DNA from: Tolypothrix carrinoi HA7290-LM1
GTDB taxonomy: Bacteria > Cyanobacteriota > Cyanobacteriia > Cyanobacteriales > Nostocaceae
DNA length: 10,472 bases
Direction: 5' to 3'
NCBI GenBank assembly: GCA_019358935.1
Contig: JAHHIK010000180.1
Coordinates: 1 to 10,472 of the forward strand
In this document: piece by piece, positions 2,608-10,472 of the stretch
Numbering within the stretch: position 1 is the first letter of the stretch
Layout: every line of letters starts with the position of its first letter
The notes under the pieces: model-generated
The model's input: the letters and a program-made list of their open reading frames with translations, nothing else
Told to the model about the DNA's origin: nothing
Databases searched by the model: none
Translations under genes and position numbers: made by a program

Positions 2608-3141
2608 TCATTGCGTGCTGCTAGGTGCATTGTTCTTGTCACGGCGACCAAGCAGGGTGCGAACCGCAGTGAGTACTTCGGGTATAGCGAGTACCAACGA
2701 GGCTACCGAGCAAACAGTCGCAACCTGGCAGTAGTCGCAAAACGCTTTGTTTTCACTCCACTCCTCACGAGCCAGTTCCAGGGAAACGCCTGAGTCGATG
2801 AGGATTTTGATGCCCATTGCAATTGGTAGCAACGGGTTACGCCTAGCGCGGTCAAGACCACCAGCACTAGCCAGCCAAGCAGTGAGGGCGTAATTAAGCA
2901 TCATTATTGGTCCATCGGGTGAGTTGAATCGGCTGTAAGCGTAGTTAGATGCGTCAACACGGTCTGCATCGAATAACGGCACAGGCAGTGATGGTAGGTG
3001 ACTAACAACCCCGGTTTGGTAAAGTGTGACGATTTGTCCCATTGAACCTCCGAGCATAGACAAACCGATAATTGCTCTGCGACGGCTCATGTCAGGATTC
3101 TTTCCTTGACGCAGTTCCTCACTGAGTTGTTTTGGCTCCAT
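2608..3141 (-). CDS. vitamin K epoxide reductase (VKOR) family membrane protein
   Basis: 177 aa with several hydrophobic helices, D-x2-V-x2-S-x-Y...PDG segment and C-terminal CXXC (AFCDYCQ); AAGGA RBS upstream. Confidence 0.85.
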   Translation of the reverse strand: MEPKQLSEELRQGKNPDMSRRRAIIGLSMLGGSMGQIVTLYQTGVVSHLPSLPVPLFDADRVDASNYAYSRFNSPDGPIMMLNYALTAWLASAGGLDRARRNPLLPIAMGIKILIDSGVSLELAREEWSENKAFCDYCQVATVCSVASLVLAIPEVLTAVRTLLGRRDKNNAPSSTQ

Positions 3142-3480: not shown

Positions 3481-5256
3481 TTATTTATCGTTGATGTCAG
3501 TTGACTGTTGCCTTTTGGTGGCAATTTCTTCGAGTTCTTTGAGGTGTTGTGCGTTCACGAGCCATTCTTCTTCTAAGTTAAATGTATCTGAACCATACTG
3601 ACTTTGTTGCTCTTTTAGTGTTGCTATTTCATGATTAATTATTGCTAATGCTTTACCTTGAGTAATTGCCTTTTTTAACACCTCAAACCTTACTGGTTCT
3701 TCAAGCCGACGCAACAAACGCAAGATAAAACGACTGATTCTAACTTCATTTCCCAAATTAAAAATGCTTTGAGATTTCTCTTCAGCACACAACAGTTCTT
3801 CGCCCACATCAAACAAAGTTAGCACAATTGAAGGAATGCAATTCAGAGGAATTTCTTGTTCAGAGTAATTTTCAAACTGTTCAATAAATGTTCTAAGTTG
3901 CGTTGTGCCATCTAGACGTTTTTGATTAGCAACTTTTATCAGTTGTTCTCCAAATTTATCCGCATCTTCAGCCAAAGCCAGGATAGCTTTTATCTGAGTA
4001 TTAGATAATTCCGATGTTGAGAACGTCAGACGAAAGTAGATAGGAAATATTTCTAAGCTACATACACGTAGTTGCTCGCGCCATTTTAATTGTTCTTCAT
4101 CTAAGTAGCTATTACCCCAAACTAATTTTAACTTAGGAAAAAGGTGCATGAGCAGATTTTTAATCGGCTGCTTATCCTCATCTCGCAGTTGAGCAATCCA
4201 GGCATTATGGAGATTTTTCAGTTCGTCTATTGAAGTGTTTACCTCTCCTACAAAAGCATGAGGATTATGGATGATTGTGTCATATACCATTGGGCAAAAG
4301 ACTCGCAGCGACTCAAGAGCAATGAAATCAACTGGATTAACTTCACCTTTCACTGCTGGATATGTAACTGTTAAAGTCTCAGTCAGATGAACAATGTTGC
4401 GGAGGTTAATAATAAAATGGTCTATTCCTTGAAAGTAAATATTGTCCCAGTGAATTTGGTCAAATAGTTGTTTTTCTGTATCAGCAAATATGCCATCAAG
4501 CTTTTCAAAAAGCAACCGACGAAGTGAGATTTTATCTGGAATAGGTAACTCAAAAGCAACTTGAATAATTTTTTCTAAGTATGCTTTTCCGGATATTTCT
4601 TTACTTTCTGCAATTGTTTTCATTACAACTTCTTTATCAAAGACCAGAACGTAGACAACGTTACTAAAATTCGGTATTGCTTTGAAAATGCGAAGTAACT
4701 GCCTGATATCGTTAGCAGGAAGCCGATCAATATCGTCAATCGTTACAACTATTCGCTGCTGCTGCTGTCCTAGTGTATCTTCGACTTCTTCTTTTAATTC
4801 CGAAGCTTCCTTTTCCTTATCGTCGAATAATGTTGCTACTGCCCTGCCAGTTTGAGCATAAGGCAAAGGAATTTGCGAAATAACTTTAGCAAAATCAGCT
4901 ATTCTCTCTTTCAAGCCTTTGGACACAGATCCTTCTTGGCTTAAAACGTTTTGTAATTGGTCAAAAAAGCTTCTTGTAATGTCTTGCTGTCCAGAAAATA
5001 ACCAGGGATTAAAAGGAACGATGATTGGTTGGGATTCATCTGGCTTTTGCTGAAGATAGTGAACTAAGAAGTTCAATAGTGTGGATTTGCCGGAACTCCA
5101 AGAACCGTAGACTGCAATAACGAACCCTTCAGGAAAGGTCATTTTGCAAATGCTGTCTGCCAGATACTTGGCGAAGCTGGCATGTCCCAGCAGGTCTTTT
5201 TCAGGATCAACTAAGGAGCTGTCTGTTGATATATCGTCAATTTCTGTTTGTGCCAT
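3481..5256 (-). CDS. KAP-family P-loop NTPase
   Basis: 591 aa; DLLG..FA..LA..I N-terminus, Walker A YGSWSSGKST, FNPW motif, Walker B IVVTIDDIDR, YLEKIIQV.F.LP motif. Confidence 0.93.
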   Translation of the reverse strand: MAQTEIDDISTDSSLVDPEKDLLGHASFAKYLADSICKMTFPEGFVIAVYGSWSSGKSTLLNFLVHYLQQKPDESQPIIVPFNPWLFSGQQDITRSFFDQLQNVLSQEGSVSKGLKERIADFAKVISQIPLPYAQTGRAVATLFDDKEKEASELKEEVEDTLGQQQQRIVVTIDDIDRLPANDIRQLLRIFKAIPNFSNVVYVLVFDKEVVMKTIAESKEISGKAYLEKIIQVAFELPIPDKISLRRLLFEKLDGIFADTEKQLFDQIHWDNIYFQGIDHFIINLRNIVHLTETLTVTYPAVKGEVNPVDFIALESLRVFCPMVYDTIIHNPHAFVGEVNTSIDELKNLHNAWIAQLRDEDKQPIKNLLMHLFPKLKLVWGNSYLDEEQLKWREQLRVCSLEIFPIYFRLTFSTSELSNTQIKAILALAEDADKFGEQLIKVANQKRLDGTTQLRTFIEQFENYSEQEIPLNCIPSIVLTLFDVGEELLCAEEKSQSIFNLGNEVRISRFILRLLRRLEEPVRFEVLKKAITQGKALAIINHEIATLKEQQSQYGSDTFNLEEEWLVNAQHLKELEEIATKRQQSTDINDK

Positions 5257-6947: not shown

Positions 6948-7143
6948 GTTGAAGAAAGGCAGAGGGCAGGAGGCAGCTATGCTGAAGGAGCAATCGGATG
7001 GGGATTCAAACCCCAACCGATTGAATCCACCGTGTAGACGGTGGGGTTTTATACCCAGTTGGCTCCAGCCAGAAGGCTGAATCAAAGACATAATTTATAC
7101 CTTCTGCCCTCTGCCCTCTGCCTTCTGCCTTCCGCCGAAGGCG
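6948..7143. mobile_element. non-autonomous structured repeat element (STRR-heptamer arms, MITE/REP-like)
   Basis: Left arm AAGGCAG-AGGGCAG-GAGGCAG (6956-6976); inverted right arm CTGCCCT x2, CTGCCTT x2 (7104-7131); several internal hairpins; exact removal restores the MFS frame. Confidence 0.82.
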
Positions 7144-7711
7144 GATAACCTGGATATAGATATCAGCGTAGTAACGATTTATAACGCTTTAGCAACTGGT
7201 GCAAACATGCTAATGCTGCTTTTGTGGGGCAAACTGGCTGACCGGATTGGGAATCGCCCGCTACTGCTATTAGTAGGAGTCTTAGTGGCGCTGACACCTG
7301 TGCTGTGGCTAGGAACCGGAAGCGATCAAATTTCCTTTTGGGTCTGGTTACCCTTGTTGCACGTACTAACCGGCGGGACGTGGGCAGCAATTGACTTGTG
7401 TACCAACAATCTGATGATGGGAGTGTCACCGCTGCGTCATCAGTCTAAATATTTTGCGATCGCAGGAGCAATTGCTGGTATCACTGGGGCAGTAGGTATC
7501 GCTGCCGGTAGCTTTCTGTTGACTCTACCTGGTCTCAATAATTTGCTGGGGTTGTTTGTTCTCTCAGGTTTCCTACGGCTTTTTGCCCTCCTGCCCTTAG
7601 TTTTTGTTCAGGAGCAGCGCTCTATGCCATTGGGTCAGCTAATACGAGTCTTGTTCCCAATCAGGCAGTCAACAGCTCTGATTGAAGTAAAGGAATAAGT
7701 TTTCAACTAAA

Positions 7712-7770
7712 CTATCAGGAGTCCCTCACGCTCATTTGGTACTCCAAATCAGTGATGGGAGGAATGGTAG
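7712..7770 (-). mobile_element. downstream end hairpin of the IscB-encoding IS200/IS605-superfamily element
   Basis: Minus strand CTACCATTCCTCCCATCACTGATTTGG-AGTA-CCAAATGAGCGTGAGGGACTCCTGATAG is a long imperfect hairpin ~80 nt after the iscB stop, of the type expected at HUH-transposon ends. Confidence 0.6.
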
Positions 7771-7847
7771 GTAAATTGTGAAACGTAGCTCAATCAAATT
7801 TTTGTGAAACAAAAACAGAGAAGAGCTACAGTTGAACAATTTACATT

Positions 7848-8553
7848 TTACGTGGTGTATGAATATCCGTCTTTTTTATGTAACGTTTTACACGTTTTAT
7901 AGCTAACTCCTGTAACTCTACTAAGTTTTGTAAAAATATCAAAACTACCGCTGGCTCGTGTTGCGATCCTTCCAACATGAATTCCTACTTTTTTACCTTT
8001 TGAGACAATAGATTTAACGACATCACCTGTTTGAAAACCGAAATGAAACTTATTTCTAGAACAGTGTCTGTTAGGAAATCCATATTTATCTGTTCTACAC
8101 TGTTGTCTTGTCCCATGACCCATTGATTTAATTAGTAACGGTTTAGTTGTTAATATTTCTAAAGTTTCGATTTTCCCAACACATGCTGCGTCTAACCAAT
8201 GAGTTTTAGGCAATTTCAAACGAGTACGATTAAACTTTGTTAATCCACCTGAACCTGTTATAACAGATAATCCCGTATCTTTTAAACGATTAAATAACGC
8301 CCATCGTGTCGAATTAACAGCAGCAGCATCTCTCAAAGGTCGTTTTGCTTGTAATAATATCTTTTTTAATAGTTCAGGCTTTTTAGCAAGAAACTTTTCT
8401 AGATCTTGCGTACCTTTTTTCTTATTACATTTATCACAAGCCAAACATAAATTAGAAATTTTGTTAGTACCTCCTTTAGCTTTGGGGTGAATATGTTCAA
8501 CTTGTAATGCAACGTTTTCGACATTGCAATATGAACATTTTCTATTCCATTTG
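7848..8553 (-). CDS. iscB: RNA-guided endonuclease IscB (RRXRR/HNH, OMEGA), 3' exon
   Basis: KWNRKCSYC...QVEHIHPKAKGGTNKISNLCLACDKCNKKKG (HNH), PLRDAAAVNSTRW, TKFNR, KTHWLDAACVG (RuvC-III), GHGTRQ..RTDKYGFP, GFQTGDVVK, DGYSY. The ORF-track portion 8554-8705 is intron sequence. Confidence 0.9.
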
Positions 8554-8628
8554 GTAGGGTCGAACGGGGTATCGCTACCCCGAACTCCCATGCAAAACCG
8601 GACATGAAAGTTTCCCGTCATCCGGCTC
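8554..8628 (-). ncRNA. group II intron ribozyme domains V and VI
   Basis: DV 8628-8595: GAGCCGGATGACGG-GAAA-CTTTCATGTCCGGTTT (34 nt, AGC triad, GNRA loop). DVI contains CGGGGTA-GCGA-TACCCCG and ends ACCCTAC (AY 3' end). Confidence 0.92.
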
Positions 8629-8685
8629 CTCGACTGTTTGGCGTTTGTCATACGTACCTCAATTTCCTTTTGAAGGATTAGGGGG

Positions 8686-10347
8686 TTAGAAAAGAGGTTC
8701 ATCACTCCTCATTTCCCACTCTTTAGGTTCCCACATAGCGTGAATGATATCGTGGCAATGTCTGTGTACCGCAGTCAGATTAGTCTTTTTATTATTGTTA
8801 CGATTTTTATCAATGTGGTGTACTTCTATTAGACTATCTGACGTAAAGTAAAGACCACAGTGCGAACATTTTCCCTGTTGCTTTTTCAGAAGTTATGATA
8901 ACTGTTTGGGAGTTTCGGGGTAATCCCCTTTTCGCGTACTCCAGTAAACCCAATCTCCGTCAAAGGGACTTCTGCTGTCCTTTACTTTTATATGCCTGCT
9001 TATCACTGTGTCACTATGTTTGGTCAACCAGTGTTGACCATCTTTGGTAGCAAATACCCAGTGATTGTTGCCCTTGGTTGTCCAAGTTTTATTGACATTT
9101 TCATGACGGTAAATTGCCCATCCTCGGATTTGTTGATAGGTAATATGGTCTGCAAGTTGAAATAATTCTTTACTGCATACCGTTTTGTAATAGTTTGACC
9201 ATCCTCTGACCACGGGGTTAAGTGTTGCAATTAGGGCTTCTCTTGATGAGCCTTTATGTCTATCTATTAGGTCGCCTATTATTTTTGTATGTACCTTCAA
9301 GTTTTCTTTGTCCGGGGTGATGATAGTTTTAAAACCTTGCTTTGAACTATATTCTCCTACCTGAAATTGTCTGATGTTAAAACCGAGGAAGTTAAATCCT
9401 ATGTTACCTTCCTCTTCAATTAAAGTGTGTGATAATCTAGTTTTTTCGGGTTTCAATTCTAAGCCTATACCCTTAAGCCAATCTGCTGTTATCTGCTGAC
9501 ATCTTTGGACAACCGACTTATCTTTGTGTAGAATTACAAAGTCATCGGCATAACGAATCACTGCAAGAGTCATTCGTTTTGACTTTTTACTTTGTTGTCT
9601 ACCATAGTTATTTTTCATATCTATGGTTTCAACATATTGAAGTAGCCGATTTTCTAAGCCGTGGAGGGCTATGTTCGCTAAAAGTGGCGACAAAACCCCG
9701 CCTTGTGGTGTTCCTTTATGTGTTTGACTGAATACTTTCTTTTTATCGCGTGTTCCGTTCGCGCTCCAGTCAATTACCCCCGCTTTTAACCACGCTTTAA
9801 TTTGTCTGCGGATGGTAGGGGTTGTATTTAATTTTATTAGCAGTGCATCATGGTTTATACAATCAAAGCAACGGGCAATATCAGCATCTAACACATATTT
9901 AGGCTTTTGCTTTATTGCTCCAAAAATTGCTTCTATTGCATCGTGGCATGACCGCCCCGGTCGGAATCCGTAGCTGTTTGGCTCGAATTTTGCCTCCCAT
10001 TCTGGCTCTAAGGCAGCTTTTACAAGAGCTTGGGTTGCTCTATCGTTCATTGTGGGTATACCTAACGGGCGTTTTTCCGTTTTCCCCGGTTTATCTATCC
10101 AGACACGCCGAACGGGTTTTGCCTTAGAGGTTAATCTCAGTTGGCTAACAAGTTGTAACCTTTGTTTTGGGGTCAAACTTTTGACACCATCTACCCCGGC
10201 TGTTTTCTTGCCTTGATTATCCTGAGTTACCCTGCGAACGGCTAGTACCTTAGCCGACCATGACATCATCAAGGTTTTTTGAAGCCTGTGGACTGCTCGA
10301 TTATCTCCACGTTGAGAGGCTTTGAATATGCGATGAAAGCAACTTAA
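8686..10347 (-). pseudogene. ltrA: group II intron reverse transcriptase/maturase with C-terminal HNH (En) domain, disrupted
   Basis: RIFKASQRGD...LQKTLMMSWSAK, GKKTAGVDG, RPLGIPT..DR, FEPNSYGFRPGRSCHDA, GTPQGGVLSPLLANIALH, RYADDF, FLGF, LNPVVRGWSNYY. TAA at 8893-8895 is followed in frame by LLKKQQGKCSHCG...EVHH...NL.AVHRHCHD..H to TAA 8686-8688. +1 frameshift at 10333-10339; IS junction at 10347/10348. Confidence 0.92.
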
Positions 10348-10472
10348 CTGGAGTTTAGACTAAGCAACAAGAAATAACCCAGCAGCGCTGAGTCGATCAA
10401 ACACAAGCTTTAAGCACGAAAATCTTCGATATTAAGCAGATTTTGGTTGCTCTTTCCGGGGCTTGGCTGTAC
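10348..10472 (-). mobile_element. end of an IS (probably IS701-like) inserted at TTAA within the intron RT gene
   Basis: RT homology stops at TTAA (10344-10347, codons F-K). The adjacent CTGGAGTTTAGACTAAG looks like an IS terminus, and minus-strand 10470-10432 reads a basic tail TAKPRKEQPKSA* compatible with a transposase C-terminus. Family assignment is tentative. Confidence 0.6.

Follow-up and report, generated by a model that had tools for sequence, protein, structure and literature searches.

In the cyanobacterium Tolypothrix carrinoi HA7290-LM1, on the minus strand of contig JAHHIK010000180.1 (C180), a group II intron encoding a reverse transcriptase (RT) stands directly before the 3′ part of a gene for the RNA-guided nuclease IscB. 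The question raised by this locus is whether the arrangement yields a nuclease that depends on splicing, as was proposed in a preliminary description made from the sequence alone, or whether iscB serves as the landing site of a retroelement. The whole contig, 10,472 nucleotides long and hereafter called the window, was analysed together with its genome (G000; 7.96 Mb in 184 contigs, none shorter than 10 kb) and with related loci; 15,806 HIP1 octamers in the genome agree with its cyanobacterial origin. The window most probably carries the decayed remains of a group IIB (chloroplast-like) intron of cyanobacteria. Members of its lineage would home into iscB of IS200/IS605-type elements by reverse splicing, entering between E-Y-L-L-N/E and K-W, where the HNH domain begins.

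The junction of the intron with iscB and its recurrence

The adjacency of a group II intron and the HNH/RuvC-III half of iscB, already seen in the preliminary description, is confirmed by matches to RF00029 and TIGR04416 and with the open 234-codon 3′ part of the gene. Domains V and VI of the intron lie at 8553..8631 (minus strand), with the 3′ end ...CGACCCTACC and a bulged A at -8; RF00029 matches the minus strand at 8630-8554 with 51.8 bits (cut-off 40), RF04357 matches too, the fold is normal and the catalytic triad is present in domain V. The iscB 3′ exon (7848..8552, minus strand; KWNRKC...) is open and comprises the HNH, RuvC-III (HWLDA) and C-terminal parts, and profile searches matched NF040563 positions 189-314 and Pfam HNH to it. 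Both the HNH and the RuvC-III motifs of IscB are present, under labels that we take from the general anatomy of IscB and from an alignment to solved IscB. An intron-free IscB protein, P0007, is 91% identical to the window 3′ exon over its residues 191-424, reads EYLLN followed directly by KW at the corresponding site and carries PLMP, RuvC-I, bridge helix and RuvC-II; it is the best stand-in for the missing 5′ exon.

The intron end had been placed at 8554. It is set here at 8553, with the 3′ exon starting at 8552 (AAA TGG), because only that cut keeps the frame in the three relatives that have both junctions on one contig. In these relatives the 5′ exon ends with E-Y-L-L-N or E-Y-L-L-E and the coding sequence resumes at K-W, while the intron begins GTGCGACCCG and finishes CGACCCTA(A/C)C. 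The expected restoration of ...EYLL-x-KWNRKC... is therefore right as regards the in-frame junction, which is observed in the relatives; no codon is split, however, and the junction is in phase 0. The complete order of parts in the relatives is HEARO/omega-RNA, iscB 5′ exon, GTGCG intron start, intron and 3′ exon, and the 5′ end GUGYG and domain I are seen in relatives whose 3′ part is 82% alike to that of the window.

When 185,579 genomes were scanned with a pattern in which the IscB exon start comes after domain V, 11 stretches matched, eight of them at the same site (Microcoleus N9_A2, GLPB, N3A4 twice, M. anatoxicus three times with its intron contig, and Microseira wollei), two representing other introns nearby and one a chance match (L038). 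The same codon is occupied at ten iscB loci in eight genomes (G000, G061 twice, G062, G063 twice, G064, G065, G172 and G661); the survey of other iscB copies advised earlier has thus found the codon hit repeatedly. In run X2 a close relative of the intron is followed by a different IscB-like CxxC exon. The corresponding metagenome scan returned 19 stretches, 18 of them without RT or IscB. At the level of the phylum 4 of 401 genomes matched, two as repeats of known loci and two by chance, and at the level of the order 13 of 401, comprising four true and nine chance matches, a figure near that of the reversed-pattern control. The site is rare overall, with four true matches in 401 genomes of the order. 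Within the Microcoleus family, where four candidates per genome were scored, 6 of 144 genomes have domain I at 96% or more over its length. Among the matches listed for 60 relatives of the window's genome, none spans the junction.

The Microcoleus introns are 98-99% alike over 1788 nt, and compared with them the window intron is 82% and the Microseira intron 69% alike. The iscB 3′ exons of the Microcoleus copies are 61-74% alike, apart from one pair at 86%, and the two occupied alleles of G061 share 71%. Repeated homing is indicated, not a single inherited insertion, because introns 98-99% alike lie inside exons that are mostly 61-74% alike. Considering the near-identical introns, the divergent iscB alleles and the sites outside iscB, repeated retrohoming suits the data better than the notion of an intron hitchhiking on a multicopy element. 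HEARO RNA was found upstream in 5 of the 8 intron-bearing loci tested. In the relatives the 5′ exon is open in 7/8 and the 3′ exon likewise in 7/8, and PLMP, RuvC-I, bridge helix and RuvC-II are present in 7/8 of the 5′ exons. Individual copies are damaged: the G062 intron has lost its RT through an internal deletion, G065 has a frameshift in the endonuclease (En) domain, and in G661 the host gene is broken.

An open reading frame (ORF) of 285 amino acids (7848..8705, minus strand) joins the intron tail to the iscB 3′ exon; as previously noted, the ORF track fuses domains V and VI onto IscB in this way. The fusion most likely arose in gene calling, from an open frame that is usual in this class of introns: of 14 intron ends, unrelated sites included, 12 have the frame phased with the intron end open over 31 codons or more. 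The same observation led us to reject the fused ORF as an iscB-specific rescue. An ATG stands in the phased frame in 10 of the 14 ends, also with unrelated sites among them. Six of the seven matches to the fused head consist of intron tail plus K-W, three of these with exons unlike those of the aligned relatives, and the intron-derived head accounts for a group of records wrongly annotated as “HNH endonuclease” or “partial IscB”. As a separate observation, a phased open frame at intron 3′ ends could begin translation of any phase-0 3′ exon without splicing.

Recognition of the iscB target

Pairing between the exon-binding sites (EBS) of the intron and the intron-binding sites (IBS) of the exon was analysed in an alignment of domain I from 34 related introns out of 51 loci, in which every column was scored against exon positions -1 to -15. 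Four duplicates or wrong starts were left out; the remaining omissions were loci without a match, a start or enough length, or exact repeats. The ten best covarying pairs connect intron positions 356-361 with -1 to -6, positions 287, 289 and 290 with -9, -11 and -12, and position 285 with -14. Nine of them exceed the maximum of 200 shuffles (11.2), in scores that relatedness inflates. By their covariation these columns are identified as EBS1, EBS2 and EBS2a. A first candidate for EBS1, the GUUGA loop, was rejected, as it stays the same beside different exons. No delta-delta′ partner emerged, since the delta column hardly varies; A is the first base of every 3′ exon known in the clade. An EBS2a-IBS2a pair at -14 is a described feature of cyanobacterial IIB1/IIB2 introns (PMC8643678), which the present introns share according to the covariation; they differ from that description in a 3′ end that is mostly ACC, not AAY.

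EBS2 (GGUAU) forms 5/5 pairs at all 8 occupied sites and at 19 of 20 vacant iscB sites, the latter taken from 24 near-full vacant iscB genes. It pairs nearly everywhere because its G and U bases face synonymous positions of Glu-Tyr-Leu. Position -14 is A in 20/20 vacant sites. In the Microcoleus EBS a wobble-capable G or U faces all five two-fold degenerate codon positions, which by naive chance would occur about once in 32. EBS1 of these introns, GUUUAG, requires a pyrimidine at -1, and Asn at -1 is found in 5/6 occupied against 1/10 vacant Microcoleus alleles (p 0.008, the alleles not being independent). The Microseira branch has EBS1 UUCUAA, which forms 6/6 pairs with the Glu-type site in G661. 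The EBS/IBS pairing is hence borne out by covariation and by per-site pairing in the relatives only, and it is partial in G062 and G065.

Ribonucleoproteins of group II introns reverse-splice into EBS-paired DNA, En cuts the second strand, and reverse transcription copies the intron. In the lineage considered here, EBS2 (GGUAU) and EBS2a (U) would read the Glu-Tyr-Leu codons across synonymous variants, while EBS1 would choose the allele class, Leu-Asn being matched by GUUUAG in Microcoleus and Leu-Glu by UUCUAA in the Microseira branch. A gene that is multicopy, transcribed and dispensable and has a conserved motif would offer renewable landing sites, and near-matches in other genes would be hit as spill-over. 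The insertion most likely acts as a knock-down of IscB, rescued only to the extent of splicing, with the frame restored once the intron is spliced out. In the window, a second insertion sequence (IS), a frameshift and a stop later broke the intron's own gene. The locus is a parasite of a parasite, decayed here.

Competing explanations and the state of the window copy

Several observations weigh against homing into iscB as described above. The 5′ half of the window copy, and hence its own EBS1 and 5′ exon, was not seen. The occupied allele of G065 forms only 3/6 pairs with the EBS1 of its own intron, with which four of ten vacant alleles pair at 6/6; the occupied allele of G062 forms 4/6 pairs. 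Summed over the pairings, mismatches hardly distinguish occupied sites from vacant ones (p 0.04). Of the ten Microcoleus 5′ junctions three fall outside iscB: one in dnaK (G168), one where a protoporphyrinogen oxidase gene ends (G064) and one at a further site (G159). The open exons of the relatives fit useful splicing as well as recent insertion. On the side of homing into iscB, the proteins of iscB-site introns, together with those of the non-iscB copies, form one clade (SH-aLRT 95) next to the tnpB-site proteins, inside a clade (99) that also holds introns in tnpB between EYKTSGW and KL, in a quick tree made without bootstrap and without G661.

The copies outside iscB lead to an improbable alternative: the intron may be a generalist of relaxed specificity, for which iscB is merely the most frequent good EBS match and not an adapted host. 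These copies are 96-99% alike to the iscB-site introns, and the EBS1 of the G159 copy has changed to suit the new site, with which it forms 6/6 pairs. Against this stand the three intron branches (window, Microcoleus and Microseira), which are 69-82% alike, all sit at one iscB codon and share their EBS2 wherever it is readable. In addition, iscB holds 9/12 of the 5′ junctions, with between 2 and about 20 copies of the gene in each genome.

The dnaK copy, L139 (G168:C828), is an intact, 99%-identical intron lying in frame, judging from the flanks. L140 (G159:C14) carries a second group II intron inside the RT gene of the intron copy (a twintron), and its EBS1 is the retargeted one. Sister introns 72-78% alike occupy tnpB between EYKTSGW and KL (L143, G065:C274; L144, G070:C147; L145, G176:C299), a site different from the tnpB site given in PMC4810608; L143 stands in tandem behind another intron. 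Related introns at the SYGFRP/TG motif of other RT genes (L105, L108, L111 and L112) have an EBS2 that has changed to suit the respective site.

Other introns lie near the same iscB motif, at -9 (Symploca, L039), -10 (an ORF-less remnant in an Ardenticatenales bin, L047) and -12 (metagenome contig L060), both junctions being visible only in L060. A bolder proposal, which we regard as rather unlikely, builds on the resulting four insertion points within 12 bp of E-Y-L-L-N/E-K-W in cyanobacteria, a Chloroflexi bin and a metagenome contig. The first HNH helix might then be a standing hotspot, at which the splicing of intact carriers may gate IscB, the omega-RNA transcript would feed intron mobility and IscB-driven repair would preserve the intron, and the whole would show in living cells how the HNH of IscB/Cas9 may have arisen according to Kapitonov et al. 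If true, an HNH-bearing intron landing at the RuvC-II/HNH boundary would be the very event proposed in PMC4810608. In G000, however, the En that resembled the IscB HNH belongs to another intron, not to this one. The preliminary description had also seen reverse transcription coupled with RNA-guided cleavage at this locus; nothing found points to functional coupling.

The window copy itself is damaged at several points. The preliminary description missed that an IS, and not a plain window edge, interrupts the intron: the right end of an NF041680-family IS with the terminal repeat CTGGAGTTTAGACTAA occupies 10348..10472 (minus strand), inserted at TTAA in the RT gene, and the contig breaks inside the IS. 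This segment has 80-86% matches in four other contigs of the genome, and a paralogue on C178 matches NF041680. Its depth in run X1 is about 7 times that of the flank, and the terminal repeat recurs at several contig ends. The adjoining N-terminal RT part (10273..10347, minus strand) is broken by a +1 frameshift near 10338, located by DNA alignment to L048. The residual RT/maturase frame (8893..10272, minus strand) has 459 codons with YADD intact, matches TIGR04416 (ORF 10272-8893, 318.6 bits, cut-off 300), RVT_1 and GIIM, begins at residue 53 of an intact 575-aa relative and is 84% alike to the L048 protein. A premature TAA at 8893..8895 (minus strand) removes the endonuclease domain and severs the HNH-type En part (8686..8892, minus strand), which is seen by translating beyond the stop and is uninterrupted in L048, L141 and L142; the stop is missing from a close relative in run X2, which differs in its base at 8895. 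The intact RT-maturase-En frame of an active mobile intron is absent here, broken by the IS, the frameshift and the stop.

As to the frameshift, it consists of a seven-for-six base substitution (window 10332-10338) at the conserved KLQKR start of the RT, a lesion present in 4/48 listed intron proteins. The window shares it with L002, L082 and L143; at least two of the four proteins belong to different clades, and the lesion is recurrent.

The missing half of the copy was sought throughout the assembly. No 5′ exon, intron 5′ end or omega-RNA belonging to it was found in the 184 contigs; contigs below 10 kb are absent from the assembly, so this is no proof of loss. A tblastn search of G000 with two paralogous IscB proteins revealed no 5′ part followed by an intron; it detected an uninterrupted iscB gene on C144, a frameshifted one on C131, a truncated one on C42 and, on C38 and C181, 5′ fragments. 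With domain I of the close relative as query, the only match in this genome was another intron, on C61, and no intron sequence adjoins any of the IS ends listed for contig termini. The flanks of the MFS transporter orthologues in G003 and G005 correspond to inner parts of C21 and C81, with no missing half there, and the four HEARO matches over the cut-off in G000 are not linked to this copy. Among the decayed iscB copies of G000, that of C181 (10263-10425) lies at a contig end, joined to a truncated membrane-protein gene, that of C42 spans 62106-62924 and that of C131 13913-15204.

With these lesions, it is quite unlikely that the window copy still splices and that the element works as an RNA-guided nuclease whose full-length IscB depends on splicing. 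Such a reading can point to the open 3′ exon with HNH and RuvC-III, the normal fold of domains V and VI and the remaining RT and maturase frame with YADD; the IS, moreover, sits in the looped-out ORF domain, and help in trans could come from five further intron proteins of the genome, whose alignments show no stops. These proteins, however, are at most 57% alike to the one of the window, the RT gene is interrupted by the IS, the frameshift and the stop, the first 52 residues are gone from the remaining frame, and neither 5′ exon nor omega-RNA of this copy was found in the assembly. RmInt1, residing in its own IS, splices at 0.07% (PMC3035460). A splicing-dependent nuclease is doubtful for this copy because its RT/maturase gene has three lesions; the copy is probably immobile and poorly spliced, with its iscB silent. 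The earlier interpretation holds for the intron family but probably not for this copy.

Very unlikely is a single old insertion, carried along by transposition of a composite iscB-intron element without repeated homing. One codon is common to all copies, and the upstream HEARO RNA of five loci would suit such an element. The disparity between introns and exons, including the 71% of the two occupied G061 alleles, speaks against it; for Microcoleus it is contradicted, and no identical composite copies at several sites of one genome were seen. That the junction is an assembly chimera of repeats is hardly credible even in a fragmented genome rich in introns and IS, as a single Logan contig of run X1 covers 7500-10373 without difference (X1 is possibly the source sample, so it is not independent) and the same junction occurs in seven other genomes. 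Matches of run X3 to the window consist of small pieces only.

Homing into iscB by a lineage now decayed at this locus is accordingly preferred, and the remainder of the window adds its surroundings. The likely downstream end of the iscB element lies at 7702..7760 (minus strand), with an imperfect hairpin at about 7760-7723 in the DNA fold and the flank GTTGAA at 7707-7702. The match to an iscB copy of G007 begins at 7698, and the G005 orthologue lacking the iscB element has an identical GTTGAA flank, which is probably host target sequence, presumably on the side of the target-adjacent motif. A 200-bp miniature element at 6949-7148 interrupts the MFS transporter gene and is missing from the G003 and G005 orthologues; with 35 full-length copies at 98% or more in G000, it looks like a recently expanded miniature inverted-repeat transposable element. 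Positions 1-1017, 1203-1649, 2608-3141 and 3481-5256 hold fragments of two IS transposases (DDE_Tnp_1, DDE_3), a PhaE-like fragment, a VKOR-family gene and a 591-aa KAP-family P-loop NTPase.

Known systems and significance

The nearest precedent was described by Kapitonov, Makarova and Koonin in 2016, who reported a 2511-bp RT-HNH intron inserted in frame and site-specifically in tnpB genes about 60% alike (PMC4810608, Suppl. Fig. S9), mentioned many more such introns in tnpB and proposed such an intron as the source of the IscB/Cas9 HNH. Independent site-specific insertion into tnpB was inferred by these authors (PMC4810608). The introns in tnpB (IS605) of Coleofasciculus chthonoplastes resemble the present ones in being cyanobacterial, in their length of about 2.5 kb and in encoding RT, maturase and HNH, and also in forming near-identical copies, in frame, at one codon boundary of divergent genes for RNA-guided nucleases. 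In contrast, the host gene here is iscB and the site is the HNH start; the passages of PMC4810608 on these introns name tnpB only and contain no EBS/IBS analysis.

RmInt1 of Sinorhizobium meliloti is likewise a mobile group IIB intron that lives in an IS gene, that of ISRm2011-2, and has been proposed to hold the element in check by splicing poorly (PMC3035460, PMC4238363). RmInt1 has no endonuclease domain (PMC4615759), lies in a transposase gene and has had its splicing measured, whereas the intact relatives studied here possess En, lie in the gene of an RNA-guided nuclease and are known from sequence alone. Among solved structures, the protein of an intact relative best matches T.el4h/Th.e.I3 (PDB 6ME0), with 333 bits against at most 116 for other classes; 6ME0 is a CL1 protein, and the tree, having no reference introns, does not separate CL1 from CL2.

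In the relatives, both the gene that hosts the intron and the RNA upstream of it correspond to IscB/HEARO (OMEGA) elements of the ISC2 group (NF040563, RF02033; PMC4810608), the difference being that the gene is here split by an intron and its 5′ half is not in the assembly of the window. IStrons, which combine a group I intron with IS605/IS607 (PMC13565253), also unite a self-splicing intron and an RNA-guided nuclease at one locus. There the intron encloses the element and belongs to it, whereas here a separate retroelement, a group II intron, lies within the nuclease gene. A published account of an intron in iscB was not found, in a search that covered little of the subscription literature and no intron database, so absence from print is not established; the passages of PMC13565253 and PMC10055086 covered describe none. 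That such introns prey on transposon genes is already known; iscB as the host gene appears to be new.

The finding means that IscB, the ancestor of Cas9, joins the RNA-guided nucleases preyed on by site-specific retroelements, with the exact site and the pairing rules now given. For experiments the window copy is a poor object; the intact Microcoleus copies are better, and L139 in dnaK is a good place for studying splicing. Two questions become testable: how the intron keeps a protein motif as its target despite synonymous drift, and whether such introns restrain OMEGA elements, as has been proposed for RmInt1 and its IS.

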